Below are positions 1 to 14,001 of a DNA stretch of 14,001 nucleotides, piece after piece (position 1 is the first letter of the stretch; every line of letters begins with the position of its first letter). Position numbers and translations under genes: made by a program. Under the pieces are notes generated by a model. That model had not been told where the DNA came from and did not search any database. It saw only the letters and a list, made by a program, of their open reading frames with translations. Source of the stretch: an uncultured Erysipelotrichaceae bacterium (GTDB lineage Bacteria; Bacillota_I; Bacilli_A; RF39; UBA660); the NCBI GenBank assembly GCA_902803795.1, contig CADCRC010000024.1:1-14001 (forward strand), in the 5' to 3' direction.

Positions 1-75
1 TTAAACCAATATATTGAAGAAGGAAAATTAGGGAAATCCTCTGGGGAAGGTTTTTATAAATACGACAAATCATAA
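1..75 (+). CDS. 3' end (partial) of a 3-hydroxyacyl-CoA / 3-hydroxybutyryl-CoA dehydrogenase gene
   Basis: Frame 1 reads LNQYIEEGKLGKSSGEGFYKYDKS* and ends at TAA 73-75. The GKK(S/T)GxGFYxY tail is characteristic of the Hbd/FadB C-terminal domain. The gene is truncated by the window start. Confidence 0.5.
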   Translation, partial: LNQYIEEGKLGKSSGEGFYKYDKS

Positions 76-193
76 TCATTTGCAAATATCAAAAAGTATG
101 TTATATTTTATTTAGCAATTGAGTCAATCTCAATTCATAGATTTTGCCCATTTTTCGCAAACACGTTAAATCGAGGCCCTACATTGAATATTC

Positions 194-220
194 ATCGAGC
201 TTTTATAGTTCGATTTTTTT
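194..220 (+). terminator. Rho-independent terminator candidate downstream of the hbd-like gene
   Basis: Stem atcgagc (194-200) pairs with gttcgat (208-214); there is one G-U wobble. The loop is ttttata and the T-run TTTTTTT lies at 214-220. It sits inside a locally GC-richer island (cgaggccct) in an otherwise AT-rich spacer. Confidence 0.4.
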
Positions 221-291
221 GTTAAATTTATATTTTAAAATATTAAAAACTTTCTATATTAAGTTTTTTAATTAAAACTACATAAAACTAA

Positions 292-1506
292 ATGACATTT
301 TTTAAGAAATTTGATACAATAAAAATGGTGATTAAAATGTTGAAGTTTAATTTTGACAAAGATGTAGATATAGAAAGTAATTTATCTAGAAAAGATTATA
401 TTATAAACAAATTTAATACATGTGAAATGATAGGATGGAATAATCCAATAGAAGATGAAATAGTAGAAGATATACTAAAGACATCTAAAAAAATAAAAAA
501 GAATTCAGAATGTTTAGTTGTATTAGGTATAGGTGGATCATATTTAGGAAGTAAAAGTCTTAATGAATTATTTAAATCATATTACACAAGTAATTATGAA
601 ATTGTATACTTAGGTAATACTTTATCAACTGATTATATTAATGAAACATTAGATTATTTAAAAGACAAAGATTTCACATTAAATGTTATATCAAAAAGTG
701 GGTCAACATTAGAAATAAAATTATTATTTGATATAATGATTAAGTATATGAAAAACAAATATAAAAAAGAAGAATTAAAAGATAGAATAATTATAACAAC
801 ATCACCAAATTCCAAACTTCATGAAATGGCAAAAGAAAATAGTTATAAAACTTTTTTTATACCAAATAATATTGGAGGAAGATTTTCTTTAATAACACCA
901 GCTCATTTATTACCACTATCATTAAATATAGATATAAAAGAATTGATTCGTGGTTATAATGATGGAAAAAAATATAAAAATCAAGCATATAAATATGCAT
1001 GTATTAGAAATAAACTCTTCTTAGAAAATAAATATATTGAAAATTTTTGCTTTTATAATGACAAATTCATATATTTTGGAGAGTTTTTAAAACAATTATT
1101 TGCAGAAACAGAAGGGAAAGATAGTACAGGTGTTTTCCCAATCTATTCTATATATACTAGAGACCTACACTCAATAGGGCAATTTATACAAGAAGGGAAC
1201 AAAATAATATTTGAAACAACAATACAAGTTGATTATAAAACAAAATATAAATATAAAGACTCAACAATAAATGAAATTAATGATAAAATAAATCAATCAG
1301 TAATAAAAGCACATAAAAATGGTAATGTATACCAAAATGTTATAATATTAAGTAAATTAAACGAATATAACATAGGAGAATTAGTATATTTCTTTATGTT
1401 ATCTGTTAGTTATTCAGCCCTAACATTTGGTGTTAATCCATTTAATCAAGATGGAGTAGAGGAATATAAAAAAATATCTAAAGAAAAACTAGAAAAAATA
1501 ATATAG
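292..1506 (+). CDS. pgi: Glucose-6-phosphate isomerase (Bacillus-type PGI)
   Basis: ORF of 404 aa. It carries the PGI signature LVVLGIGGSYLGSKSL and a C-terminus (GVNPFNQDGVEEYKK) typical of Firmicutes Pgi. An in-frame TAA at 289-291 rules out an N-terminal extension. It is somewhat shorter than the usual ~450 aa. Confidence 0.88.
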   Translation: MTFFKKFDTIKMVIKMLKFNFDKDVDIESNLSRKDYIINKFNTCEMIGWNNPIEDEIVEDILKTSKKIKKNSECLVVLGIGGSYLGSKSLNELFKSYYTSNYEIVYLGNTLSTDYINETLDYLKDKDFTLNVISKSGSTLEIKLLFDIMIKYMKNKYKKEELKDRIIITTSPNSKLHEMAKENSYKTFFIPNNIGGRFSLITPAHLLPLSLNIDIKELIRGYNDGKKYKNQAYKYACIRNKLFLENKYIENFCFYNDKFIYFGEFLKQLFAETEGKDSTGVFPIYSIYTRDLHSIGQFIQEGNKIIFETTIQVDYKTKYKYKDSTINEINDKINQSVIKAHKNGNVYQNVIILSKLNEYNIGELVYFFMLSVSYSALTFGVNPFNQDGVEEYKKISKEKLEKII

Positions 1507-1522
1507 AAAGACAAGTGATTAC

Positions 1523-2242
1523 ATGATAAAGTCATTTTTTTGCAATTTTGACATATGCTTATTAGATAATGAAGATTCTATATCAATAAGAAAAATGCTA
1601 GAAATAGACAAATTAAAACAAAAAAACATTGAATTATTAGTAGAATCTAATTGTGAAATAAAAAACATATTAAGTTATAATAATGATTTTCCATTTTTAA
1701 ATTATATTTTCTTTTATGATGGAACAATTTTATATGACGTAAATCATGATAAAATAATAGAAGCATACAACATAGGAATAAATTCAATAAAAAAAATATT
1801 AAAAGTATTTAGTAATGATATATGTATATATACAAAAAATGATAAATATCATATGAAAAAAGAAAACATTGATGAAAACTATATAAGTAACTATAAAGAT
1901 GATATATATAAAATAGATATAAAATATAAAAACAAAAAAGATATAGATTTAAATAAATTAAAAGATATAAAAAATATAAAATATAAAATAAATGATAATA
2001 TATTAGAAATTACCAGTGATAAATCTAATAATATAAAATTATTAAATAAATATTGTAAATTAAAAAATATAAAAAAAGATGAAATATTTTATGTAGGATT
2101 AAACGATATAGAAATGATAAAAAAATTAGATAGTACATATTCTATAAAATGTAATAAAAAAGAATTAAAAAGTAATACATGCAAGACATTTAATGATATA
2201 ATAGAAGCAATAAATTACATAATAGAAAAACATAAATTATAA
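1523..2242 (+). CDS. HAD-superfamily (Cof-like, subfamily IIB) hydrolase homolog with degenerate catalytic motifs
   Basis: 239 aa. The N-terminus FFCNFDICLLDNEDSI resembles HAD motif I (hhhDxDGTLL), but the second Asp and the GT are replaced. The C-terminal YVGLNDIEMIKKLD resembles motif IV (GDGxNDxxM) with the GD lost. It starts 16 bp after pgi. Confidence 0.5.
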   Translation: MIKSFFCNFDICLLDNEDSISIRKMLEIDKLKQKNIELLVESNCEIKNILSYNNDFPFLNYIFFYDGTILYDVNHDKIIEAYNIGINSIKKILKVFSNDICIYTKNDKYHMKKENIDENYISNYKDDIYKIDIKYKNKKDIDLNKLKDIKNIKYKINDNILEITSDKSNNIKLLNKYCKLKNIKKDEIFYVGLNDIEMIKKLDSTYSIKCNKKELKSNTCKTFNDIIEAINYIIEKHKL

Positions 2243-2270
2243 ATAATATTATAAAAAGGAGTTGTAAAAA

Positions 2271-3500
2271 ATGAAAAAAAGAATAATACTACTAACTATT
2301 TTAATGACATTGTTAATACCAAAAATAGTAAATGGAAAAGAGTTAACATTAGAACAAATAAAAAATAATTATATAGAAATAAAATATAATGAATGTCTCG
2401 AAACAAAGCAATATCATGAAAGTATTGGAAAAGAATTTAATTCAGATTGTAATAAAAAAAATAATATAACAATAACTAATAATAAATTAGTAATAGTAGA
2501 ACAAGCAAAATTAAATAATGAAATGCAAAAAATAAAAATTACATATAGTTTAAATAAAAATATTTTATCAACAACATTTGAAGGAAATAACCCATTTTTT
2601 AGATTTTGTGATTTTAAAAAATTATTTATGGCAACACAACTTCTTCAAGGATATAGTGAAGATGAAATAAATATAATTTTACATAGTGAAAATATTGATG
2701 ATTATACTATTGAGAAAAATGGCTTTGAAATAAAAACAATAGGTACAAACGAGAATATGACTGGAGGATATGGAAAAATTGATATTTCAAAGAAAATTAA
2801 TATAGGAGATAAAAAAGAAAATACTGGAATATCAAAAAAAGATATAGAAAACTATAATGGAATTGACAGTCTAAAATCAGAATCAGAAAAAGATAATTTA
2901 GACATAGTTATAAATGGAGTAGCTATTTACAAAAGTTATAAAAATGGTAAATATATTTTATCAATAGGAGAACAAAACAAGTTAACAGATGCTTCATATA
3001 AAACATTAAAAGTAGTTAACTCAATCATATTTGATGAAGATAAAAGAGCAAATAAATATTTAGAAAAATACTATCCTAAAATTGGTGAAGATAAAAATTT
3101 TATAGGATATGAAATTGATATAAACCCAACTAATGAAAATCATTATTATAACCTATTTCCAGATTTTAAATTTATTGAAATAAGAATAGACAAAGCTAGA
3201 GCAAAAGAACAATTTTATAAAGTAAATGATAAAAAAGATAATCAAATTGGTAATTTTATACAAAAAAACAAATATATTTTTGTAGTAATAACAATATTAG
3301 TAGTAATAATATTAGGCATATTTATTCTATCAAAACTTGCAAAGAAAGATGCGTTTAAAGCAAATATTCAATCATCAAAAACAAACAAACCAACCATAGA
3401 AAACCAACAAATAAATAATCAAAATTATATACAAAAAACATCTATTGAGCAACCTAAACCAAACAATGAAACCAATCAAAATTTAAATAACAACAATTAA
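2271..3500 (+). CDS. Hypothetical cell-surface protein (Sec signal peptide plus C-terminal transmembrane anchor)
   Basis: 409 aa. The N-terminus MKKRIILLTILMTLLIPKIVNG is a typical signal peptide. A C-terminal hydrophobic helix (IFVVITILVVIILGIFILSKL) is followed by a K-rich stop-transfer sequence and an N/Q-rich low-complexity tail. A strong SD (aaaggag) lies 8 nt upstream. I recognised no domain. Confidence 0.7.
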   Translation: MKKRIILLTILMTLLIPKIVNGKELTLEQIKNNYIEIKYNECLETKQYHESIGKEFNSDCNKKNNITITNNKLVIVEQAKLNNEMQKIKITYSLNKNILSTTFEGNNPFFRFCDFKKLFMATQLLQGYSEDEINIILHSENIDDYTIEKNGFEIKTIGTNENMTGGYGKIDISKKINIGDKKENTGISKKDIENYNGIDSLKSESEKDNLDIVINGVAIYKSYKNGKYILSIGEQNKLTDASYKTLKVVNSIIFDEDKRANKYLEKYYPKIGEDKNFIGYEIDINPTNENHYYNLFPDFKFIEIRIDKARAKEQFYKVNDKKDNQIGNFIQKNKYIFVVITILVVIILGIFILSKLAKKDAFKANIQSSKTNKPTIENQQINNQNYIQKTSIEQPKPNNETNQNLNNNN

Positions 3501-3533
3501 ACAGAACTGTAAGATATGTTTAAAAAACAAAAG

Positions 3534-3580
3534 AAGAACTATTATAGAATTTAGAATCAATTATAATAGTTCTTTTAATT
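3534..3580 (+). terminator. Rho-independent terminator after the surface-protein gene
   Basis: A perfect 13-bp inverted repeat, aagaactattata (3534-3546) with tataatagttctt (3562-3574), encloses a 15-nt loop and is followed by a T-rich stretch (tttaatt). Confidence 0.5.
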
Positions 3581-3638
3581 ATATATAAAATCTTTTATTT
3601 TATCTTAATTTATAATATACTAATATTAGGTGATTAAA

Positions 3639-3962
3639 ATGAAATATATAGAAATAAAAACGAATATAGATGATTTAAATAAAGCAAAAATTATATCAAA
3701 TAGATTACTAGAAAAACATTTGATAGCCTCGTCAAATATAATTCAAGTAGAAAGCATTTATAACAGGAATAACAAACAACAAGAATATAAAGAATATATG
3801 ATAATAATGAAAACAACAATATATTTATACAAAAAAATAGAAGAAGAAATACTTAATTTACATACATATGAACTACCAGAAATATCATATCATGAAATAA
3901 CAGGACATGAAAAATATTTAAAATGGATAGATGATGAAACTAAACAAATAAAGGAGATTTAA
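3639..3962 (+). CDS. cutA: Divalent-cation tolerance protein CutA
   Basis: The protein MKYIEIKTNID...ASSNIIQVESIYNRNNK...LHTYELPEISYHEITGHEKYLKWI matches the CutA1 fold motifs (SIYxW/R, HPYE(V/L)PEI, YLxWl). The ATG at 3639 is preceded by the SD aggtga with 5 nt spacing. The ORF track's GTG at 3630 is less likely. Confidence 0.8.
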   Translation: MKYIEIKTNIDDLNKAKIISNRLLEKHLIASSNIIQVESIYNRNNKQQEYKEYMIIMKTTIYLYKKIEEEILNLHTYELPEISYHEITGHEKYLKWIDDETKQIKEI

Positions 3963-3965
3963 TAA

Positions 3966-5192
3966 ATGGAATTTTTAGAAATAGCAGAAAAAGAATATGA
4001 AAAATATTGGAATCAATCAAAATATAAAACATTTTTATCATCACCTAAAATAGGTAAACTAAGAAAACTAGAAGGATGGGATTATAAATTTGTAGGTGTT
4101 AAGGAAGAAAAAAAACTTCTTGTAGGAGCCCTTATTGTATTTAGAAAAACACATTTTAATAAAAAAGAATATTATATGCCAAGAGGACCACTACTGGATT
4201 TCAATGATATAAAATTAGTAGAATTCTTTTTTTATAATTTAAAAGATTATATTAAGAAAAATAATGGTTATAAATTAAGAATAGATCCATATATAATTAA
4301 TAAACAAAGAGATATAGATGGAAATATAGTAGAAGATGGAATAGACAATACTAAAATCAAAGAAGAATTATTTAAAATAGGATTTAAACAAATAGAAGAA
4401 GATAAAATGGAACAAGTAGGATGGATGTTTTGCCTAGATTTAAAAAACAAAACAAAAGACGAGATATTTAAAGAAATGTATCCTAGTTGTAGAAATACAA
4501 TAAGAAAAGCAGAAAAAATAGGAATTAACATCAACGAAATAGAATACAAAGAATTAGATAAATTTCAAGATATAATGGAAGAAACATCAAAAAGAAAAGG
4601 ATTTTCAAATAGAAAAATATCATATTACCAAAATATGTATAATTTATTTCATAAAGATAATGAAATTAAGTTCTTTATTAGTACACTTAATCTAACTAAA
4701 TATATAGAAAGACTAAACCAAGATATAAAAGAAAGACAAGATAAACTAGAAAGCTTAGGTAATGCAAAATACAATGATGGTCAGAAAAAAAATCTAAATC
4801 AAGAAATAGAATCAATTAATAAGAGAATAGAAGAAGCAAAAAAAATAAAAAAGGAAACAAACAAAGAAACAATAACATTATCAGGCTCAATGTTTATGTT
4901 AATAAAACCTGAAATAATATATTTATCTAGCGGAAATTATGAAGAATTTATGAAGTTTAATGCTCAATATTTAATTCAATGGGAACTTATAAAATATGGA
5001 ATAGAAAATGGATTTGATAGACATAACTTTTATGGAATTCCAGCAAACATAAATGAACATCCAAAGGATTATGGAATATATGAATTTAAAAGAGGATTTA
5101 ATGGATATGTAGAAGAATTAATAGGTGAATATGAGATGCCAATTAGCGGATATTATAATATTGAAAAAATAATTAGAAAGGTAAGGAATTAA
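3966..5192 (+). CDS. FemAB-family peptidoglycan interpeptide-bridge aminoacyltransferase (FemX/MurM-like)
   Basis: 408 aa. The N-terminal half aligns by eye with S. aureus FemA (WNQS..., GWDYKFVGVK, ALIVF, YYMPRGPLLDFND..LVEFFF..LKDYIKKNNGYKLRIDPYI). A coiled-coil insertion (res ~245-300) is typical of FemA/FemX. It starts 3 nt after cutA. Confidence 0.85.
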   Translation: MEFLEIAEKEYEKYWNQSKYKTFLSSPKIGKLRKLEGWDYKFVGVKEEKKLLVGALIVFRKTHFNKKEYYMPRGPLLDFNDIKLVEFFFYNLKDYIKKNNGYKLRIDPYIINKQRDIDGNIVEDGIDNTKIKEELFKIGFKQIEEDKMEQVGWMFCLDLKNKTKDEIFKEMYPSCRNTIRKAEKIGININEIEYKELDKFQDIMEETSKRKGFSNRKISYYQNMYNLFHKDNEIKFFISTLNLTKYIERLNQDIKERQDKLESLGNAKYNDGQKKNLNQEIESINKRIEEAKKIKKETNKETITLSGSMFMLIKPEIIYLSSGNYEEFMKFNAQYLIQWELIKYGIENGFDRHNFYGIPANINEHPKDYGIYEFKRGFNGYVEELIGEYEMPISGYYNIEKIIRKVRN

Positions 5193-5193
5193 T

Positions 5194-5757
5194 ATGTATG
5201 ATTATATAGAAGGAACAATTAAAAGTCTTAAATCAAATTCAATAGTACTAGATAACAATGGAATTGGTTACTTAATATTTGTAGCTAATCCATATTACTA
5301 TGAACAAGGTAAAAAATATAAAGTATATGTATTTCAGCAACTAAGAGAAGATGAAAATAGTTTATATGGATTTAGTTCATCAAGCGATAAAGATTTTTTT
5401 CTAAAATTGATATCAGTAAAAGGATTAGGTCCAAAAATGACAATGCCACTATTTGCTACAGGACAAACTCAAAATATAATGGACGCAATTGAAAGAGAAA
5501 ATATTTTATATTTAATGAAATTTCCAAAAATAGGACAAAAACTAGCTAAACAAATTGTATTAGATTTAAAAGGAAAACTTGAAACAATAGGAGTTGGAAC
5601 AAGTGACGATGAAATGCAAACACAAAAAGAACTTGAAAGCGTACTTATAGGTTTAGGATACAAAGAAAAAGATATTATACCAGTTATTGCTAAAGTAAAT
5701 ACAAGTCTTAAAATAGAAGATCAAGTAAAAGATGCATTAAAATTAATGTTAAGATAA
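5194..5757 (+). CDS. ruvA: Holliday junction branch-migration complex subunit RuvA
   Basis: 187 aa. MYDYIEGTI...NGIGYLIF...LYGFSSSSDKDFFLKLISVKGLGPKMTMPLF...LMKFPKIGQKLAKQIVLDLKGKL shows the OB domain, the HhH pair and the C-terminal RuvB-binding domain of RuvA. It starts 1 nt after the femX-like stop. Confidence 0.9.
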   Translation: MYDYIEGTIKSLKSNSIVLDNNGIGYLIFVANPYYYEQGKKYKVYVFQQLREDENSLYGFSSSSDKDFFLKLISVKGLGPKMTMPLFATGQTQNIMDAIERENILYLMKFPKIGQKLAKQIVLDLKGKLETIGVGTSDDEMQTQKELESVLIGLGYKEKDIIPVIAKVNTSLKIEDQVKDALKLMLR

Positions 5758-5791
5758 AAAAGATGTATTTACACATTAATTACATCTTTTA
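5758..5791. terminator. Bidirectional rho-independent terminator between convergent ruvA and nifU-like genes
   Basis: Perfect 10-bp arms, aaaagatgta (5758-5767) and tacatctttt (5781-5790), enclose a 13-nt loop. An A-tract lies on one side and a T-tract on the other, so it can terminate both strands. The 3' arm overlaps the last codons of the nifU-like ORF. Confidence 0.5.
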
Positions 5792-6017
5792 TCTCAGGAA
5801 TTTCATTTAAAAACAATTCTTTTATTCCATCATTTAAAGTAAAATCAATTAAACTACAATTCTGACATGCACCAGTAAGTCTAATATATAAAATGTTATC
5901 TTCGTATTTAACAAATTCAACATTACCACCATCATTAATTAAAAATGGTCTTATTTTATCTAAAACAGTATGTATTTTAACTATAATATCTTCTTCCATA
6001 AAATCACCAAAATACAT
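5769..6017 (-). CDS. NifU-like (Nfu-type) Fe-S cluster assembly domain protein
   Basis: 82 aa. ...IRPFLINDGGNVEFVKYEDNILYIRLTGACQNCSLIDFTL... is the Nfu/NifU C-terminal domain signature (GGDVEL..., GAC.GC). The true start may be the second ATG (minus-strand codon at 5997-5999, MEEDIIVK), which has a GGTGA SD 4 nt upstream. That would give 76 aa. Confidence 0.8.
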   Translation of the reverse strand: MYFGDFMEEDIIVKIHTVLDKIRPFLINDGGNVEFVKYEDNILYIRLTGACQNCSLIDFTLNDGIKELFLNEIPEIKDVINV

Positions 6018-6122
6018 TATATCATTTTATGAGAATTAATCAAATCAAATAATTGATAAAATTTATAAATATATTTACAAAAAAATAATTTATGATAAAA
6101 TTAATAATAGAGGTGGATATGG

Positions 6123-7109
6123 ATGCAGTCGATATTAACTTATGGCAGTTATTTTGGAGTAAATATGTACCAAATAAACTTTATATATGACTCAAAAGAA
6201 TATGATATAGACAGAGAAAACACATATAGAGTATTTAAAAACTATATTATTCCAAAATATGGTATGAATTCACAAAGACAAGAACTTCATAAAGAAGTAA
6301 TACAACCATACCTCGTAGATAAAAAAGGTAATATTATTAATACACAAAACTATTATAATAGTGGAATAATAGGAGGATGTAATATACCTGAAGATATTCT
6401 ATACAAGTTTATAAAAGAACTAATAGATGATTATAATATACCAATTACAATTGTTGGCACAAGATACTATATATATGATAACAAAGCAATAGATAAAAGT
6501 GTTAGTTATTTAAGAATAAAAGCTAATTTATACGAAGAAGAAGAATTATATAAATTAGAATTTATATATTCAACAATTAGACAACAAGATTATATAAATA
6601 AAAGAATAAAAGAGATTAAATATAATAATATTAAAACAAATATTAAAAATAATGTAGTAGAAAGTATTGAATTTGATAAGAAAAATGATAAAATACTAAA
6701 TGAGTTAGTAAAAGTAGATGGAATCATAATAAATAATGGAGGTATAATTATGAAGGAAAAAAATATTTTCGAAGGAGCACCAGTTATTTCTGCAGACAAT
6801 GAAAAAGAAATAAAAGTAGAAAAAGAAGAAAAAAACAATTATAAAAATCTTACAACAGAAAAATTAAAAGAATTATCAAGTGAAGAATTAAAAAAATTAT
6901 CACAAGATATAGCAAACAAATTAGAAGAAAAGAGAAAACAATTAAAAGATATAAAAGGACGTGTAGTTGTATCTGAACAAGAATTAGAAAATTTAAGTAA
7001 TGATTTTGAAAGAAAGCTTAGAGAAGATATAATGAAAACAAATGAAAAAATAGAAAAAGCAAAAGAAGAAAAAGAAGCACTTGATGTAGCAATAGGAATA
7101 AGGAAATAA
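6123..7109 (+). CDS. Hypothetical cytoplasmic protein with a C-terminal K/E-rich coiled coil
   Basis: 328 aa. An SD aggtgg lies 5 nt upstream. The N-terminal ~210 aa is a Tyr/Ile-rich domain I could not assign. The C-terminal ~100 aa is a charged heptad-like coiled coil (EKLKELSSEELKKLSQDIANKLEEKRKQLKDIKG...). No transmembrane segment. It is followed 3 nt later by the SPFH gene. Confidence 0.7.
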   Translation: MQSILTYGSYFGVNMYQINFIYDSKEYDIDRENTYRVFKNYIIPKYGMNSQRQELHKEVIQPYLVDKKGNIINTQNYYNSGIIGGCNIPEDILYKFIKELIDDYNIPITIVGTRYYIYDNKAIDKSVSYLRIKANLYEEEELYKLEFIYSTIRQQDYINKRIKEIKYNNIKTNIKNNVVESIEFDKKNDKILNELVKVDGIIINNGGIIMKEKNIFEGAPVISADNEKEIKVEKEEKNNYKNLTTEKLKELSSEELKKLSQDIANKLEEKRKQLKDIKGRVVVSEQELENLSNDFERKLREDIMKTNEKIEKAKEEKEALDVAIGIRK

Positions 7110-7112
7110 TAT

Positions 7113-7901
7113 ATGGAATCATTAATAATAGTATTAATTATAATAATTGCTTTTATCTTAATAGGATCAATAAAACAGGTAAATCAATTTGAAAAAGGAA
7201 TATTATTTACATTTGGTAAATATTCTAAAACATTAGATGCAGGATGGCATATAATATTACCAATATTTCAATCACTTATTAAAATAGATGTAAGAACTAG
7301 AGCAGTTGATGTTCCAGAACAAGATGCAATAACAAAAGACAATATTTCAGTAAGAATAAATGCAGTATTATATTATAATGTTTTTGATGCATCTAAAACA
7401 GTACTTGCAGTAGATAATTTCAAATATGCAACAGCACAACTTGCACAAACAACTATGAGAAATGCAGTTGGATCTGTTACATTAGATGAACTTTTGAGTG
7501 AAAGAGAAAAAATATCTAATCAAATATGTCAAATAATTGATAAAGCAACTGATCCATGGGGTATAAAAGTAGAAAATGTTGAATTAAAAGATGTAGCATT
7601 ACCAGAAGAAATGAAAAGAGTTATTGCTAAAGTAGCAGAAGCTGAAAGAGAAAAAGCTGCAGTAATTACTAAAGCAAAAGGTGAAAAAGAAGCAGCAGAT
7701 AATTTAGCAGAAGCATCAAAAATAATGAGTTCTTCACCAGGAGCATTGCATTTAAGAACTTTAGCAACCCTAAATGATTTATCAAGTGATCAATCAAATA
7801 CAATCATTTTTGCTATACCTATTGAAGTATTAGATGCGGTAAAAGGAATTGGAAAAGTAATTGATTCAAAGGTACAACAAACACAAGACAAAAAAGACTA
7901 A
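7113..7901 (+). CDS. SPFH/Band-7 domain protein (stomatin/slipin-like, QmcA-type)
   Basis: 262 aa. It has an N-terminal membrane anchor (LIIVLIIIIAFILIG) and then the SPFH core (VPEQDAITKDNISVRINAVLYYNVFDASKTVLAVDNFKYATAQLAQTTMRNAVGSVTLDELLSEREKIS...DPWGIKVENVELKDV). An A/E-rich coiled coil (RVIAKVAEAEREKAAVITKAKGEKEAA) follows. Confidence 0.9.
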   Translation: MESLIIVLIIIIAFILIGSIKQVNQFEKGILFTFGKYSKTLDAGWHIILPIFQSLIKIDVRTRAVDVPEQDAITKDNISVRINAVLYYNVFDASKTVLAVDNFKYATAQLAQTTMRNAVGSVTLDELLSEREKISNQICQIIDKATDPWGIKVENVELKDVALPEEMKRVIAKVAEAEREKAAVITKAKGEKEAADNLAEASKIMSSSPGALHLRTLATLNDLSSDQSNTIIFAIPIEVLDAVKGIGKVIDSKVQQTQDKKD

Positions 7902-7912
7902 CATAAAAGCGG

Positions 7913-8452
7913 GTGATATACTTGAGGCGCAATAGTCTACTATTAATAATTTTAATTTGTATATTAGTAATAATCTCATTATTTGGACTAATGCAATATG
8001 AAAAAGTAAAAAATGCACAAACAACCATGTCAAGTGAATATTCAAATCTTGAAACAGTTATTAATCAAAGATCTAAATTAACTACTAAATTATCAGAAAT
8101 ATGTGAAAAATATATGATTGATAGAAACAATTTAATTAAAGAATTAGCTTTATCAAGAAAGAACATTGATAAAGCAAAAAATATTAATCAACTATCTGAT
8201 AGTAATAGTAAGATGAATAGAATATTAAAAATGATATATGAAGTATCAATATATTATCCAAATTTAACATCTGACATGTCATATGAAGGTATAAAACATG
8301 AACTTAATGAAGCAAATAAAAGAATAGAAGATGCTATAAAAGATTATAATTCTTCAATTTCAGAATATAATAAATTACTAAATGCATTTCCAACAAGTCT
8401 AATTAAAATTATAGCAAAATATAAAGAAAAAACATATTTTGAAAACAAGTAG
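7913..8452 (+). CDS. lemA: LemA-family membrane protein
   Basis: It has one N-terminal transmembrane helix and then the LemA pattern (YN.LET.INQRS.L...YPNLTSDMSYEGIKHELNEANKRIEDAIKDYNSSISEYNKLLNAFPTSLIKIIAKYKEKTYFE). The track start is the GTG at 7913. The TTG at 7922, preceded by a GGGTGA SD, is an equally plausible start. Confidence 0.8.
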   Translation: MIYLRRNSLLLIILICILVIISLFGLMQYEKVKNAQTTMSSEYSNLETVINQRSKLTTKLSEICEKYMIDRNNLIKELALSRKNIDKAKNINQLSDSNSKMNRILKMIYEVSIYYPNLTSDMSYEGIKHELNEANKRIEDAIKDYNSSISEYNKLLNAFPTSLIKIIAKYKEKTYFENK

Positions 8453-8523: not shown

Positions 8524-10461
8524 TTATATTTGAATAAACTTATTTTCGTGTGGAATTACAGTTACATTATTCGAAGTATTTTCAATACTATTATTAGAAT
8601 TATTATTGTTATTTATAGTATTATCATTTGATATAGAAGTATTGCCAATATTAACTGCAACATTTTGATTTTGTATCATATTATTATTTGGTGTAACATT
8701 AGTATTTGATGATCCATTCCATATTTCAAGTACATTACAATTAGATGACCAAGGAGTAGGATTTGGCATTTCCATCCTAACAATTATTGGAATTCTAAAA
8801 GCACCACCAAAACCTAAACAAGTTCCAGATTGTAAAGTTTTTTGTTTTTCAACAATTTCATCTGAAATATTAGGAACCATTTTTCTAATATAATCAACAT
8901 CAACAGGATGATTCATCTTAAAAATTAAGAAATTAGAACACTGAGAAATAACAGTATCTGAAAGTTCTACAGGTCTTTGAGAAATAAGACCTAAAATCAC
9001 ACCATACTTACGTCCTTCTTTAGCAATTCTTTCAAATATATTATAACCAATTAAAAATCTATCAGTATCATTTTGAATATATCTATGAGCTTCTTCAACT
9101 ACAATATGAAATGGGATAGATGCTCTATCTTTTAGTCCTTTAGCAAAATCAAAAACAAGTCTCGAGAATATCTTAGTCATTACTTTAGCAAAATCATCAT
9201 CTACATCATTTAAATTTATATTTACAATTTGATATTTACGAGAATCACGAATTAGTAATGATGATAAATATTGATCTATTGTAACATATTCAGGATATTC
9301 AAAATACTTTGAATTATTACCAACAATTAAAGCATGAAGTCTAACTCTTATAGTAACCGCATCACCATAAGTTGTTTGATTTCTAAGCCATCCTTCAGAT
9401 ATTAAAGTAAAGTTTAAAGCCTTTTCTAAAGTAGCTAAATCATAATATACATTTTCTTGTGGTTCATAATTATCATATTCTTTTTTTATAAAAGATGAAA
9501 CATATTCAGTTAATAATACACTTTCACTAAATTGTCCTGCATTATCAATTAAAAAACAATCTCTAAACTTTCTTGTATAACCAATACCTTGTACTGGTGC
9601 TTCTAAATTAAACTGTGGAGTAGAACAGCTTGCTATAATAGAAAATATTTCATTTCTTTTATTAGGAGAAGTTTCATTAGTAAATAATATTGTCATTATA
9701 GCACTTGCAATTATATGATTTTTAAATTTATTAGCATCAACATCTTTTTGTGAAAATATTAAAGCAAGTTTTCTCATTCTTTCGATGATTGGAAGTTGTG
9801 AATGAGTAGTACATTGTAATAATAAAGCAAGATCTTGTACATTTAATAAATATATAGGTAATCTTAATCTTTCACCAATACCATCTGTTTCATTAGTAGT
9901 AAGATATCTATAATTAAAGTTTTTATTAATCTCATTCAAATTACTGAAAGCATTATAATACTCACCAGAAGAATCAAACAAAAGAATGTTAGATTTATAT
10001 GGATACAATCTTTCATCATGAAACATATTTTGAAATATTCTTGTAACACCACAAGATTTACCAGAACCTGAATTACCAAAGATTGCAAAATGATTCGAAA
10101 AAAAGTTATTAACTTCTAAATATACAGTTGTATCATTATAAAAAGGTGATAAACCAAGTTTCATAAATCCTGTTTTATCTTCACCTGTAATTAAAGGAAT
10201 TTCCTCTTTAGAAATAAGTCTTATTTTTGCATCTAAATTAGGCTTTCTAATTGTACCACCAATTAATTTTCCATCTTTTATTTCACCTAAAAATCTAGCA
10301 GTAACTCTATCACCATCTAAGTTATCAACCTCACCAAGAACTTTTTTATCCGCATCTTCAAAAATTAAATGAAGATTCATAACATTAGTAGTTAAGTTAT
10401 CTGGATCTTTTAATTTTATATCAGCAGTCTTATCACTAATAAAAAGAATTCTATCAAACAT
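8524..10461 (-). CDS. HerA-like / FtsK-HerA superfamily P-loop ATPase (DUF87-type) with an Asn-rich C-terminal tail
   Basis: 645 aa. The N-terminal ~120 aa is a HAS-barrel-like beta region (VLGEVDNLDGDRVTARFLGEI...GGTIRKPNLDAKIRLIS). Walker A is AIFGNSGSGKS. Walker B is the DEAH type (FHIVVEEAHRY). A sensor/Arg-finger region matches HerA (ILGLISQRPVELSDTVISQCSNFLIFKMNHPVD). The last ~90 aa are N/S/T low complexity. On the minus strand, the SD agagagg lies 10 nt upstream of the ATG. Confidence 0.8.
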   Translation of the reverse strand: MFDRILFISDKTADIKLKDPDNLTTNVMNLHLIFEDADKKVLGEVDNLDGDRVTARFLGEIKDGKLIGGTIRKPNLDAKIRLISKEEIPLITGEDKTGFMKLGLSPFYNDTTVYLEVNNFFSNHFAIFGNSGSGKSCGVTRIFQNMFHDERLYPYKSNILLFDSSGEYYNAFSNLNEINKNFNYRYLTTNETDGIGERLRLPIYLLNVQDLALLLQCTTHSQLPIIERMRKLALIFSQKDVDANKFKNHIIASAIMTILFTNETSPNKRNEIFSIIASCSTPQFNLEAPVQGIGYTRKFRDCFLIDNAGQFSESVLLTEYVSSFIKKEYDNYEPQENVYYDLATLEKALNFTLISEGWLRNQTTYGDAVTIRVRLHALIVGNNSKYFEYPEYVTIDQYLSSLLIRDSRKYQIVNINLNDVDDDFAKVMTKIFSRLVFDFAKGLKDRASIPFHIVVEEAHRYIQNDTDRFLIGYNIFERIAKEGRKYGVILGLISQRPVELSDTVISQCSNFLIFKMNHPVDVDYIRKMVPNISDEIVEKQKTLQSGTCLGFGGAFRIPIIVRMEMPNPTPWSSNCNVLEIWNGSSNTNVTPNNNMIQNQNVAVNIGNTSISNDNTINNNNNSNNSIENTSNNVTVIPHENKFIQI

Positions 10462-10490
10462 ATATAATCAACCTCTCTATTCTAATTATA

Positions 10491-10518
10491 AATTATACAT
10501 GATTTTCGACATTTTACA
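10491..10518 (-). promoter_or_regulatory. Near-consensus sigma-A promoter for the HerA-like gene
   Basis: The minus strand reads TTGTAA (plus 10518..10513), then a 16-nt spacer, then TATAAT (plus 10496..10491). The predicted TSS is ~20 nt upstream of the ATG at 10461. Confidence 0.45.
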
Positions 10519-10555
10519 AGTAATCAAAAAAAAATAAAGAAAAAAAAATGAAAAT

Positions 10556-10564
10556 ATGATAAAA
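10556..10564 (+). promoter_or_regulatory. Possible extended -10 element (TGaTAAAAT) for the divergent effector operon
   Basis: A TGnTAAAAT match sits ~30 nt upstream of the gene-A SD (ggtg at 10587-10590). No good -35 is present. The surrounding sequence is poly-A tracts, so this call is weak. Confidence 0.25.
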
Positions 10565-10597
10565 TAAAAAAAAGATTAATAGAAAGATGGTGTTAAA

Positions 10598-12157
10598 ATG
10601 GCAGGGAAAGTAACTATAATATATGATGCAATAGAAAAATCTATAACAAAACTTGATTCTGCATCTACAGAAGCAACTAATACTAATGCAAAAATAGATG
10701 ATATTATATCAGATTTATCATCACTTGGAAGTAATCACGATAATTGTTTTGCATTAACAATTGCGTCATTAGAAGAATATTCAAGTTTTATTAAAAAAAT
10801 ATGTGGAGAATTAGATGCTACAAAGTCTTTAGCAAGTACTGCAGTAAGTTCATTAAAAGAAGCTGAACAAAATGGATCAAATAATCTAGATAGTTTAAGA
10901 ACAGCATTAGTTCTATTAGGTATGGCAGAAACTTCAGTTAATGCTTTAGATTTTAAAAACTTAAATTCATATAGTACTATGGATGAATATGAAAAATCAG
11001 ATAATAAAGCTGATATATCAAGATATCAAGAATACTATAACAATTCAGGTGCAGTATTAACAGATATAATAAATAGTGCAATAGTAGATAGAATGTTAAA
11101 TAAAAATTCAGATGGATCATATAGTGTAATGACAACAGAGCAAATGAAACAATATCTAGAGGATATAACAAAAGCAAAAATATATGATAAAATTAGAAGT
11201 GGAATAGATGAACCAGGAGGACCATATGGTGGAGGCGGAGGCTCATCAGGTGGAGGCTCATCTTCAAGTGGAGGTGGAAATTCATCAAATAATCAAAATG
11301 GACAAAACGAATCTCCAGCAGCAACACCATCACAACAAGCAACTCAAGCTGTCCAAACACCACAAGAACAGCCAACATCTTCAAATTCTTCTTCACCTTC
11401 CGCAGCCTCTATACCACAACTTAGTCAAACACCAAAATTGTCAACTCCAACTTTATCATCTACAATTTCACCATTGACAAAAAAAGATACTATAACAAAA
11501 AAAGATAGTTCTTCAGATGATAAAATAAGTACATTAGATACAGATAAAATACCTGCTGCAACATCAACAATAAGTCCATTATATTCAGCAGTTACAAATG
11601 TTCCTGCAGCAAGTTCATTAATTGGAGCTACAAATGCAGCATTACCAAATATAACTACAAATAAAGAATCTGGAACATCAAGAATTAATAGTACACCAGT
11701 TACAACTAAACCAACAGTAGAAGAAATAAACAGAGTAGTAACAGAAAAAAGTAATAATATTACACCTAAAAAAGCTGATATTGCAAAAGACTTAGGAAAA
11801 ATTTCTGAAGATGCAATAAAAACACCAACTATTGAAGAAAAGCCAGAAATAATACCGGAAGATTATCTAAATAATGAAGATCAAATAACAATATTAGATA
11901 AAGCTAAGACAAATTTAGGAGGATTTGCGGCAAAGAAGACAACAGTTGAACAAGACAATGATGACAATTTTGGAAAAGCAGCAATTGGTATCGCTTTAGG
12001 AGCTGGTGCAGTAGCTGCAGGAGTAGGTGCCAAAATATATATGGATAAGAAAAAAGAAGAAACTACAACCGAAGAACAAAATAATGAAAATAATATAAAT
12101 GATGAAAGTAATTCAAGTAGTGAAATTTCATTAATTGATGAACCACTAGATATATAG
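10598..12157 (+). CDS. Tail-anchored membrane protein: N-terminal helical (LXG/WXG-like) domain, Gly/Ser linker, long Ser/Thr/Pro-rich disordered region, one C-terminal transmembrane helix and an acidic tail
   Basis: 519 aa. Residues 1-~200 are predicted helical (MAGKVTIIYDAIEKSITKLD...KIDDIISDLSSLG...). GGPYGGGGGSSGGGSSSSGGGNSS is a flexible linker. About 200 aa rich in S/T/P/Q is mucin-like. The only hydrophobic helix is near the C-terminus (AAIGIALGAGAVAAGVGAKIYM), followed by a D/E/N-rich tail. There is no signal peptide. Confidence 0.75.
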   Translation: MAGKVTIIYDAIEKSITKLDSASTEATNTNAKIDDIISDLSSLGSNHDNCFALTIASLEEYSSFIKKICGELDATKSLASTAVSSLKEAEQNGSNNLDSLRTALVLLGMAETSVNALDFKNLNSYSTMDEYEKSDNKADISRYQEYYNNSGAVLTDIINSAIVDRMLNKNSDGSYSVMTTEQMKQYLEDITKAKIYDKIRSGIDEPGGPYGGGGGSSGGGSSSSGGGNSSNNQNGQNESPAATPSQQATQAVQTPQEQPTSSNSSSPSAASIPQLSQTPKLSTPTLSSTISPLTKKDTITKKDSSSDDKISTLDTDKIPAATSTISPLYSAVTNVPAASSLIGATNAALPNITTNKESGTSRINSTPVTTKPTVEEINRVVTEKSNNITPKKADIAKDLGKISEDAIKTPTIEEKPEIIPEDYLNNEDQITILDKAKTNLGGFAAKKTTVEQDNDDNFGKAAIGIALGAGAVAAGVGAKIYMDKKKEETTTEEQNNENNINDESNSSSEISLIDEPLDI

Positions 12158-12166
12158 GAGGAAACT

Positions 12167-13822
12167 ATGGAAGTAGTAGATATTACATGGAATCCTAATG
12201 AAGAAATAAATTTTTTAGATGAAAACAACTTTGATGATTATGCTTCATATTTAGATACTATAAAAAATCAACTTGAGGATCAAGAATCTATTATAGATGA
12301 TGAACTTAATATTGGAGGATTAAATGCAGCATCATTAAATTTTGATGGCTTTTCTCCTCTATGTGAAATGGGAATGAGTATAAAAAACAATTTAAGAATG
12401 GCAATAGAAGCATTAAATGAATTAAAAAGTATGGCAAAAGATGACATGTTATATCATATGACAAATGAATGGGGTAAACATTATCAAGAAGCATATTATC
12501 ATTTGGAAGAACTAAGAGAAACATATAATAATCATTCAAATGACGATTCTAATAAAAACCAGGCATATCAAGAATATGAAGATTACAAAGATATATATGA
12601 AAGCATAAAATCTAAATATGAATCTTTAGCTGGTCAAGGAAGTGCTTCAAATGCTTTAAATATTAATTTTGTTGAAGCAAGCAAACAAAGTATTGGAAGG
12701 GAAATTATAGGAAGTGTTTCTATACCAAGCGATGTAAGACAAGGTAATTATACTGTTACAACTTTTGATACATTTAAATGGTCACATAGTGCAACAGGAC
12801 AAGGACAAATATATGATTTATGGGTTTCACAAGGAAAACCTACAAGAAATGGTCTTGCATACGTTAATGTATGTGGAGAAGATAGATATCTAATAGCTAC
12901 AACTACAGCATTAGGAAAAACTGGAGATATGGTAGATTTAGATCTTAAAAATGGACAAACACTAAAATGTTTAATAACAGATATTAAAAATCCAAATGAT
13001 TCAAATTATTCAAAATATGGTCATACTCTAACAGATGGAAGCATTAATGTACTTGAATTTGAAGTAACAAAAGAAGCATTTGATTCTCATGGACGACAAA
13101 ATCCATCTACTTCAGTTTATAATCTTGAATGGGATTCAACAAGTCCTGTAACAACAGTAAATAGTCGTGGAAGTATATTTAAAAATGGAGATATAAATAC
13201 ATTTGCAGATGATATTAATTCAAGTGGTGGATCAGGAAGAACTACAAATAAAACATATTCAAATCTAAATGGAATTAGAACAAGTAATTCTGCACCAAAA
13301 ACAACAAATATTGTATATACTAGTAAAAATAATAATAGTCAAAATATTAACGATGGAGTATCATTTCAACCAACAGGCAATGCACAAAAAGATGCAATAG
13401 CATGGGGAAAATCAATTGCAGAAGATAATAGATATGGTTATAAATGGGGTGGAGGACACAATGGCGATGATGGCTCTGGAGGTTATAATTGTTCAGGACT
13501 AATATGTAATGCATATATTAATGCTGGAATACTTCCAAAAGGAAAAGTTATCCAATCAGCTCAGATGCCATCACAATTACCAAAATATGGATTTGAATAT
13601 GTGGGTAATGCGTCAAAAAGTTATGAAGGATTGCAACCTGGAGATATTCTAGTAAAACCAGGATCTCACGTAGAAATGTATGTTGGAAACGGGAAAGTAT
13701 TAGGCGCAAGAGGAGATTATGACAAATCACCGGGTGATTCTAGTGGTGGAGAAATAAGTGTAAGAAAATATGGCAATAGCAATTGGAATGGATATCTAAT
13801 ATACAGATATACTGGAAATTAA
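12167..13822 (+). CDS. Leaderless multidomain peptidoglycan hydrolase: LXG/WXG-like helical N-domain, putative 3D/DPBB-like beta domain and C-terminal NlpC/P60 (papain-like) peptidase
   Basis: 551 aa. The SD aggagg overlaps the stop of the upstream gene, which suggests translational coupling. The N-terminal ~170 aa is helical (MEVVDITWNPNEEINFLDE...ELNIGGL...HMTNEWGKHYQEAYYHLEEL). Residues ~190-330 (RYLIATTTALGKTGDMVDLDLKNGQTLKCLITDIK...GHTLTDGSINVLEFEV) resemble 3D/RlpA-like barrels, but this is a weak call. The C-terminal YKWGGGHNGDDGSGGYNCSGLICNAYINAGILPKG...PGDILVKPGSHVEMYVGNGKVLGARGD is a clear NlpC/P60 Cys...His core. Confidence 0.8.
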   Translation: MEVVDITWNPNEEINFLDENNFDDYASYLDTIKNQLEDQESIIDDELNIGGLNAASLNFDGFSPLCEMGMSIKNNLRMAIEALNELKSMAKDDMLYHMTNEWGKHYQEAYYHLEELRETYNNHSNDDSNKNQAYQEYEDYKDIYESIKSKYESLAGQGSASNALNINFVEASKQSIGREIIGSVSIPSDVRQGNYTVTTFDTFKWSHSATGQGQIYDLWVSQGKPTRNGLAYVNVCGEDRYLIATTTALGKTGDMVDLDLKNGQTLKCLITDIKNPNDSNYSKYGHTLTDGSINVLEFEVTKEAFDSHGRQNPSTSVYNLEWDSTSPVTTVNSRGSIFKNGDINTFADDINSSGGSGRTTNKTYSNLNGIRTSNSAPKTTNIVYTSKNNNSQNINDGVSFQPTGNAQKDAIAWGKSIAEDNRYGYKWGGGHNGDDGSGGYNCSGLICNAYINAGILPKGKVIQSAQMPSQLPKYGFEYVGNASKSYEGLQPGDILVKPGSHVEMYVGNGKVLGARGDYDKSPGDSSGGEISVRKYGNSNWNGYLIYRYTGN

Positions 13823-13843
13823 TATAAATAAGGGAGGAAAAAA

Positions 13844-14001
13844 ATGGAAGTCGCAAGTATAACATATAATGATGGTGAAGAACCAGCATTTCTAAAAAAA
13901 TCAGATTATGATTCATTTTTAGAATCCTTAGATTCAGTATCTAAAACCTTGGAAGAGCAATCAGAAACAATAAATGAGGAATTACATAATGGTGGATTAA
14001 A
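13844..14001 (+). CDS. 5' end (partial) of a third paralog sharing the N-terminal LXG/WXG-like domain
   Basis: The SD agggagg lies 6 nt upstream of the ATG at 13844. The 52 visible codons, MEVASITYNDGEEPAFLKKSDYDSFLESLDSVSKTLEEQSETINEELHNGGL, align colinearly (~40% identity) with the N-terminus of the 12167 gene. The ORF runs off the window end. Confidence 0.7.
   Translation, partial: MEVASITYNDGEEPAFLKKSDYDSFLESLDSVSKTLEEQSETINEELHNGGL

Follow-up and report, generated by a model that had tools for sequence, protein, structure and literature searches.

A signal-less peptidoglycan hydrolase and its conserved membrane-anchored partner in an uncultured Erysipelotrichaceae bacterium: a candidate type VII secretion substrate

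In an uncultured Erysipelotrichaceae bacterium (assembly GCA_902803795.1), the first 14,001 nucleotides of contig CADCRC010000024.1, referred to here as the window, hold an open reading frame (ORF) of 551 amino acids whose product is best explained as a bifunctional peptidoglycan hydrolase, predicted to join a divergent double-psi beta-barrel (DPBB) module to an NlpC/P60 endopeptidase. The protein carries no signal peptide and begins with an acidic, all-helical domain, called here the A domain, while the gene directly 5' of it encodes a 519-amino-acid protein with a membrane anchor and a different helical N-terminal domain, called here the B domain. The reading that we favour, by a modest balance of the evidence, is that the hydrolase is a substrate of a type VII secretion system (T7SS) of the T7SSb type, that it is exported as a complex of A and B, and that it more likely remodels the wall of the cell that produces it. 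An initial annotation of this gene, which was based on the letters of the window, has been borne out in what it observed, in that the ORF is real, its domains are present and it lacks an export signal, while its interpretation has been supported only in part, as described below.

The C-terminal domain of the hydrolase matches both NlpC/P60 (PF00877, 30.7 bits against a gathering score of 23) and ELLD (PF25309, 32.2 bits against a gathering score of 27) over the same residues (Table 1). Within this domain, Cys442 and His501 fall on the catalytic Cys and His in alignments to the solved chains 8er5 and 8idc, and both are kept in all full-length homologs (P0002-P0005) and in the tail lysin of Eggerthella phage LE1-1, which confirms the NlpC/P60 core that had been proposed around these two residues. 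The third-residue His of 8er5 lies opposite a Gly in the hydrolase, and a GD-x-SG-x-E motif, conserved in the family, follows it and may supply the third polar catalytic residue, which is not at its usual place.

The middle domain has no family match in Pfam or NCBIfam, including 3D (PF06725) and DPBB_1 (PF03330), and residues 176-424 taken as a whole have no Pfam hit at E<=0.1, nor do 12 homologs have one in this region. Its structural model is nevertheless a double-psi beta-barrel, with a predicted local distance difference test score (pLDDT) of 92, and the domain is sharply conserved, with a mean column identity of 60% over 12 sequences; a profile search with it found 81 proteins. The resemblance to 3D and RlpA-type domains that had been suggested for this region is thus upheld at the level of the fold, by the model and by homology to a tail lysin, and is not upheld by hidden Markov model (HMM) hits to either family. 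The lysin in question, annotated as such, is that of Eggerthella phage LE1-1, and its homology to the cassette extends across the DPBB core and the NlpC/P60 domain (30% identity, E 4e-27); the fold of the whole domain is shared by four uncharacterised gut-phage proteins. Paralogs that match the hydrolase in their two terminal domains carry known glycan hydrolases in the middle slot: P0002 has Phage_lysozyme2 there, and P0099, P0101 and L007 have Glucosaminidase. This exchange of modules in one slot, together with the homology to the phage tail lysin, points to a wall-lytic role for the middle domain, which is probably glycan-directed and is a candidate module for glycan-strand cleavage or glycan binding. 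Six of its residues (D254, D272, K274, H286, E297 and E299) are invariant in the family and are candidate active-site residues.

The same DPBB domain also occurs in proteins that do not have the helical head of the hydrolase. At least 80 clusters in one search (P0017-P0095, loci L002-L005) are proteins of about 280 amino acids with a WXG100-like hairpin and this DPBB domain, which have FMGP/FKGP and YKNGD-type motifs, no Pfam match and housekeeping contexts; in L002, genes for a 294-amino-acid FtsK_SpoIIIE protein and a VWA protein lie just 5' of the hairpin-DPBB gene. Elsewhere, with no helical head of any kind, the domain is joined to Peptidase_C39_2 (P0010, 514 amino acids) or stands C-terminal to CHAP and Phage_lysozyme2 (P0015, 702 amino acids), the latter looking like a lysin of a phage or mobile element.

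The absence of a signal peptide or membrane helix from the hydrolase follows from its hydropathy, since the highest 19-residue Kyte-Doolittle mean in the whole 551-residue protein is only 0.89; residues 1-60 comprise 16 Asp/Glu and 1 Lys/Arg. A longer N-terminus is ruled out by an in-frame stop three codons upstream of the ATG, and with no hydrophobic N-terminus and no alternative start the earlier statement that the protein bears no Sec signal holds. Sec signals are present in the same organism, as the ORF at 2271 begins MKKRIILLTILMTLLIPKIVNG. This ORF (2271..3500) encodes a 409-amino-acid protein with a classical signal peptide, a C-terminal transmembrane (TM) helix and an Asn/Gln-rich tail.

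The hydrolase gene lies towards the 3' end of the window, where consecutive ORFs share its strand, and the window as a whole is very AT-rich (GC 16-33%). An exact search with the 551-residue product matched no recorded contig. The partner ORF ends with a TAG at 12155-12157, 9 nt before the hydrolase ATG at 12167, and the Shine-Dalgarno sequence of the hydrolase overlaps this stop codon, which suggests translational coupling inside one operon. Another 21 nt separate the hydrolase gene from a tandem paralog, and no terminator-like site was found in 10300-14001, so that partner, hydrolase and paralog look like one operon; promoter-like sites in this region were not more frequent than in shuffled sequence. 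GC content is 29-33% over the operon region (10500..14001) and 16-25% over the housekeeping genes at 1..8000, a difference for which amino-acid composition (the Gly/Ser/Pro linker) or a foreign origin may account. The 52 residues of the paralog that lie within the window are identical to the N-terminus of P0002, a full-length form of 524 amino acids in which the A domain is followed by Phage_lysozyme2 (PF18013, 121 bits) and NlpC/P60 (PF00877, 38 bits), and a comparable tandem of A-domain hydrolases is found in L013. The helical, acidic N-terminal domain that the initial annotation described as shared is this A domain, which the neighbouring paralog has as well.

The A domain has no Pfam or NCBIfam match, and its AlphaFold model consists of three long helices (residues 19-57, 62-122 and 127-155; pLDDT 81). 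The motifs of the family are I6, F16-L17, G50-G51-L52, G61, P64-L65, H97 and E101-W102. It is a rare family, for which an exhaustive HMM profile search of 1.84 billion cluster representatives found 43 at E<1e-3, and searches of PDB sequences with A- and B-domain profiles gave nothing meaningful. Many A proteins are stand-alone proteins of 160-200 amino acids, while in others the domain is followed by varied C-terminal cargo, including NlpC/P60, lysozyme2, glucosaminidase, a class-A beta-lactamase-like domain (Beta-lactamase2), Amidase_5 and several unknown domains; to judge by these families, the cargo is mostly wall-active.

The partner protein likewise has no Pfam or NCBIfam hit. Its B domain is followed by a long low-complexity linker, a single TM helix and a C-terminal tail, which begins with the Lys-rich stretch KIYMDKKK and is acidic thereafter. 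A B-domain gene lies directly 5' of an A-domain hydrolase gene in 10 loci, that is, in the window and in nine further loci (L001, L006, L007, L010, L011, L012, L014, L015 and L019), which are all of the retrieved loci of this type that have upstream sequence, and the partners in these loci are 33-40% identical to that of the window. Judged by this recurrent gene order, the 519-amino-acid membrane-anchored protein is a conserved partner of the hydrolase, and we regard it as the most informative feature of the locus, one that the initial annotation had missed. The Lys-rich stretch after the TM helix, which is seen in the window, in L001 and in L022, suggests an N-out partner, with the B domain and linker outside and the C-terminus in the cytoplasm; alternatively, the partner may be a tail-anchored cytoplasmic adaptor.

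A link between these two families and type VII secretion is seen in other genomes. In the rumen metagenome-assembled genomes (MAGs) RUG13444 ('Erysipelotrichaceae') and RUG343, the B gene and the A-domain hydrolase gene are paired in L007 and L006, respectively, and on another contig (L008 and L009) a gene for an A domain with beta-lactamase-like cargo heads a cluster with essC. The product of this essC, a protein of 1529 amino acids, passes the EssC equivalog threshold (TIGR03928, 869 bits against a cutoff of 778), and the same cluster holds a 96-amino-acid protein with a W-x-G motif (W-H-G). A distant lineage of spore-formers (L021-L024) encodes stand-alone A proteins in an operon with two small WXG100-like proteins, DUF4176 and B-like proteins, the DUF4176 match in the L022 operon scoring 94 bits. 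Two reports describe DUF4176 as the chaperone family of T7SSb LXG toxins (PMC12478183; PMC12482557). The mention of type VII systems in the initial annotation is thus substantiated by related loci that carry essC, DUF4176 and WXG100-like genes.

In the spore-forming lineage the arrangement of the genes is itself informative. The stand-alone A proteins of L022-L024 (160, 196 and 159 amino acids) are each followed by a larger protein, and two of the three larger proteins are B-like by hhalign, the third weakly so. One of the B-like proteins of L022 (633 amino acids, hhalign E 8.8e-6) has a B domain, linker, TM helix and acidic tail, as the partner in the window does, and the other (315 amino acids, E 1.3e-7) consists of a B domain and NlpC/P60. 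The gene order is A, B, DUF4176, A, B, with another A gene and a gene for a weakly B-like protein 5' of these. This alternation of A and B genes, in which the enzyme may be attached to either partner, is the pattern that would be expected of proteins that work as a complex. An independent hint of a T7SS comes from the DPBB domain, which outside these lineages commonly stands behind a WXG100-like hairpin; in P0005 the order is WXG100-like hairpin, DPBB and NlpC/P60.

Some further features of the essC-bearing contigs are recorded here. In the A-domain genes of L008 (9896..11305) and L009 (9812..11296), the domain fused to the A domain resembles class-A beta-lactamases (Beta-lactamase2, E 7e-43); a beta-lactamase or DD-peptidase that has no signal and leaves the cell by the T7SS is one possibility for the product. 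Genes for two 415-amino-acid proteins lie 5' of essC in L008 (11344..13954), and their first 117 residues are shared, at 56-87% identity, with a 117-amino-acid ORF 3' of essC (18961..19314); these seem to form another family in which an N-terminal module is shared by full-length and stub copies, with no family match. In L009 (RUG343), a DUF87/TrwB-like ATPase of 616 amino acids (6038..7888), which is not orthologous to the ATPase of the window, is encoded three genes 5' of the A-domain gene and essC cluster.

In the mechanism that we favour, the A domain would stand in the place of a Sec signal on the hydrolase and would pair with the B domain of the partner to form a helical bundle in the cytoplasm. 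This bundle would serve as a composite recognition signal for a T7SSb, as LXG domains do with their Lap partners, and the hydrolase would either be exported together with the partner or be handed over by it. After export, the TM helix and long linker of the partner would keep the hydrolase near the membrane of the producer, where it would cut the producer's own wall, leading to remodelling, cell separation or wall opening. Observed are the domain content, the lack of a signal peptide, the recurrent gene pair and, in other genomes, the linkage to essC, DUF4176 and WXG100-like genes; the binding of A to B, dependence on a T7SS, the enzymatic specificities, the tethering and action in cis are deduced from these.

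Several points weigh against this mechanism. There are no T7SS genes within the 14-kb window, and the essC-linked A gene of the rumen MAGs encodes a paralog with beta-lactamase-like cargo and not the 551-amino-acid hydrolase. The EssC proteins of RUG13444 and RUG343 are 89% identical, and as these MAGs are closely related, the adjacency to essC counts as about one independent observation; moreover, no EssA, EssB or EsaA was recognised beside that essC (L008/L009). At the level of sequence, 0 of 44 A-domain proteins match models of LXG (PF04740), WXG100 or T7SS signals even at E<=1, and no member of either the A or the B family matches LXG, WXG100 or any other T7SS model of Pfam or NCBIfam, the only trace being weak YwqH-like hits in two A-domain proteins. 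A Foldseek search of the PDB with the A-domain model gave only non-specific helical matches (BAR, CdvB and PPE41, best E 0.49). hhalign shows no homology between the A domain and the B domain, and their physical binding is something that we infer from gene order alone. An N-out partner is also a difficulty, in that it would itself need an export step that is unexplained. Finally, the missing immunity gene, which is discussed next, is compatible with a toxin role too.

Where the hydrolase would act is suggested by its surroundings. No immunity-like gene was found 3' of the hydrolase gene in any locus (more than 10 loci), as the initial annotation had remarked for the window, the neighbour being the paralog in the window, ileS in L001 and PFK in L007 and L014, and the locus is syntenic among related genomes in a housekeeping setting. 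For these reasons, namely the lack of an immunity gene, the synteny and the housekeeping neighbours, action on the producer's own wall is likelier than interbacterial killing. The initial annotation had leaned towards self-directed remodelling, and on these grounds we share that inclination, although the hydrolase is seen here as a secreted substrate tethered by its partner and not as an accessory enzyme of the EssH kind.

The same enzyme could instead be an antibacterial T7SS effector that degrades the peptidoglycan of competitors, with self-protection provided by the upstream membrane protein, as an unusual immunity factor, or by the wall chemistry of the producer; we consider this rather unlikely. 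The varied C-terminal cargo of the A family recalls polymorphic toxins, and the tandem paralogs of the window and L013, the link of the family to essC and DUF4176, and the resemblance of the cassette to the lysin of a phage tail, an enzyme whose attack on the wall comes from outside, would all be in keeping with such a role, for which wall-degrading mycobacterial T7 toxins with helical N-termini provide a precedent (EatA, PMC13444075). Such an effector is, however, at odds with the more than 10 loci that have no candidate immunity gene downstream and with a syntenic housekeeping locus that is not a variable island, and among close relatives the NlpC/P60 end is constant and not polymorphic. In addition, the conserved B domain of the partner carries NlpC/P60 in another lineage, so that a co-substrate fits better than an inhibitor. 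Another idea, with no role for a T7SS, is that the hydrolase derives from the lysin of a prophage or conjugative element, as a remnant or after domestication, and that this enzyme, like a tail lysin or CwlT, leaves the cell through a holin, by lysis or with the machine of the element. This is improbable, since no phage or conjugation genes lie within 10 kb in any locus, where the neighbours are pgi, femAB, ruvA, sepF, divIVA, ileS, alr and pfk, and no relatives were found in viral contigs (IMG/VR) or plasmids. It would account for the homology to the LE1-1 tail lysin, for the DPBB fold common to the four gut-phage proteins, for the lysozyme and NlpC/P60 pair of the tandem paralog, which is also the Pfam pair of CwlT, and for the adjoining DUF87/HerA-type ATPase, whose superfamily includes VirB4; yet the LE1-1 lysin has no A domain, and the hydrolase lacks the Sec-type N-terminus of CwlT-type enzymes. 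An origin from a prophage or an integrative and conjugative element was rejected on account of the housekeeping gene context.

Two other explanations dispense with a T7SSb, and we hold both to be very improbable. In one of these, export would depend on the adjoining HerA/DUF87-type ATPase, which would make up a secretion device of an undescribed kind with the 519-amino-acid membrane protein. HerA shares its ATPase superfamily with FtsK/EssC, the ATPase gene is divergently adjacent to the partner gene in the window, and the different DUF87 ATPase of L009 is near the essC cluster; in L001, moreover, an ortholog (43% identity) stands three genes 5' of the B/A pair, followed by sepF and divIVA. 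L001 is, however, the only other locus with such an ATPase near the pair, there being none in L006, L007 or L014; the translation of the ATPase in the window has no TM segment, the L009 protein is not its ortholog, and among named families the window ATPase scores best against anti-phage HerA helicases, though well short of their cutoffs. The ATPase was set aside as an export motor because it is missing beside the B/A pair in most loci, and it is probably unrelated to the pair. In the other explanation, the hydrolase stays in the cytoplasm, where it would process muropeptides in wall recycling or have another intracellular role. It does lack an export signal of any known type, and some NlpC/P60 enzymes act on recycled peptides in the cytoplasm, but the layout of glycosidase and endopeptidase is that of enzymes attacking intact sacculi, such as the phage tail lysin and CwlT, the family is linked to secretion genes, and the partner is membrane-anchored.

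The coordinates of the locus are collected in Table 1. About 7 kb 5' of the hydrolase gene, an ORF at 3966..5192 resembles FemAB-type peptidyltransferases, as read from its translation. FemAB-type enzymes set cross-bridge chemistry, and in staphylococci they can give immunity to bacteriolysins.

Table 1. Features of the hydrolase locus, with positions counted from the first nucleotide of the window
Feature	Position	Strand	Details
HerA/DUF87-type P-loop ATPase gene	8524..10461	-	645 aa (amino acids); Asn-rich C-terminal tail; divergent from partner gene
Partner gene	10598..12157	+	519 aa
B domain (N-terminal, helical, conserved)	10598-11212	+	partner residues 1-~205
Low-complexity linker of partner	after B domain	+	250 aa, Gly/Ser/Pro/Thr-rich
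TM helix of partner	11981-12037	+	residues ~462-480; sole strongly hydrophobic stretch, 19-residue Kyte-Doolittle mean 1.71
Shine-Dalgarno sequence AGGAGGA	12156-12162	+	overlaps partner stop codon, 5 nt before hydrolase ATG
Hydrolase ORF	12167..13822	+	551 aa
A domain (acidic, all-helical head)	12167..12691	+	hydrolase residues 1-~175
Middle domain (divergent double-psi beta-barrel)	12713..13186	+	hydrolase residues ~183-340
NlpC/P60 / ELLD peptidase core	13439..13711	+	Pfam match, hydrolase residues 425-515
Predicted catalytic Cys442	13490-13492	+	aligned to solved NlpC/P60 chains
Predicted catalytic His501	13667-13669	+	aligned to solved NlpC/P60 chains
Start of tandem paralog	13844..14001	+	truncated by window end; 52-residue translation identical to P0002 N-terminus

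If this reading is taken to the level of the lineage, an AT-rich, Erysipelotrichaceae-like group of the gut and rumen would route wall-remodelling enzymes and a beta-lactamase-like enzyme through a T7SS and not through Sec, using a two-partner A/B signal that is unrelated in sequence to LXG/Lap and in which B is also a membrane tether; this wider proposal is possible but is put forward tentatively. Were it true, the T7SSb would be a housekeeping export route for autolysins, a route not known so far for Gram-positive wall hydrolases, and two new families of targeting domains as well as a new DPBB hydrolase family would be added to those known, the A domain, the B domain and the DPBB module being three families at this locus that have no Pfam or NCBIfam match. 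No T7SSb precedent for a bifunctional wall-hydrolase cargo was found in the searched literature, where NlpC/P60 toxins appear in a catalogue of polymorphic toxins only together with T6SS (type VI secretion system), PVC and TcdB-type delivery (PMC3482391), and for T7SS loci a 2026 review mentions only that some contain CHAP proteins, whose role is unknown (PMC13492133). The passage of T7SSb substrates, and of the machine itself, through the thick wall of Gram-positive cells still awaits an explanation, and a wall hydrolase exported as a T7 substrate would offer a new one. If the enzyme acts on neighbouring cells, it would represent the first peptidoglycan-degrading class of T7SSb effectors in the literature searched. 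In either case, the natural series in which cargo is found on one partner or the other could show how composite T7 signals are read.

Among known systems, the middle domain is like RlpA, the 3D domain of MltA, YuiC and expansin-type proteins in its double-psi beta-barrel with acidic barrel residues. Several of these DPBB proteins are lytic transglycosylases that act on peptidoglycan, and D254, D272, E297 and E299, invariant in the family, are candidates for the counterpart of the catalytic Asp in MltA, RlpA and YuiC. The initial annotation had offered CwlT and EssH as precedents, and neither is a good one, as both have Sec-type N-termini. CwlT of ICEBs1 and similar proteins resemble the hydrolase in having a glycan-cleaving module followed by NlpC/P60, and the tandem paralog has the same PF18013 and PF00877 pair. 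CwlT-type proteins begin with a Sec-type or lipoprotein-type signal, whereas the hydrolase has neither a Sec signal nor a conjugative element around it, and its glycan module is a DPBB and not a lysozyme; no conjugation genes were found in the window or the related loci, and there was no plasmid match. The tail lysin of Eggerthella phage LE1-1 (QXG83154.1, 390 amino acids) is closer in its enzymatic part, where a DPBB core is followed by NlpC/P60/ELLD with the same Asp/Lys/His/Glu and Cys/His residues, but it is a virion protein without an A domain, and the gene in the window lies amid housekeeping genes.

EssH of Staphylococcus aureus is also a wall hydrolase tied to a T7SSb, for which it opens the wall. 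It differs from the hydrolase in having a CHAP domain behind a disordered N-domain, as opposed to NlpC/P60 behind a helical one; moreover, its signal peptide is a canonical Sec one, and it is expressly described as not being a T7 substrate (PMC13059805). As a concept, the closest precedent is EatA of mycobacteria, an arabinanase toxin that is secreted by ESX-4 and has an immunity protein (PMC13444075). In EatA, as in the hydrolase, an envelope-degrading enzyme stands behind a helical bundle, there a T7 targeting bundle, with genes for helical partners upstream; EatA, however, belongs to the Actinomycetota, uses T7SSa, has a GH183 cargo and comes with a cognate immunity protein, for which there is no counterpart here.

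The LXG/Lap toxins of the T7SSb of Bacillota share more with the hydrolase. These have a helical N-domain of about 175 amino acids, variable C-terminal cargo and no signal peptide, and they are encoded, with Lap and DUF4176 (Lcp), next to a second helical protein, just as the A-domain gene is next to the B-domain gene; related loci, though not the 14-kb window, carry essC, DUF4176 and WXG100-like genes. The differences are that models of LXG, Lap (DUF3130/DUF3958) and WXG100 do not match the A and B families, which counts against the parallel, that Lap is a small soluble hairpin as opposed to a partner of about 500 amino acids with a linker and TM anchor, and that the present system has cargo on either partner, a bifunctional wall hydrolase as cargo and no immunity gene. 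By this analogy, the hydrolase probably works most like an LXG/Lap-type T7SSb substrate, while not being a member of that family by sequence.

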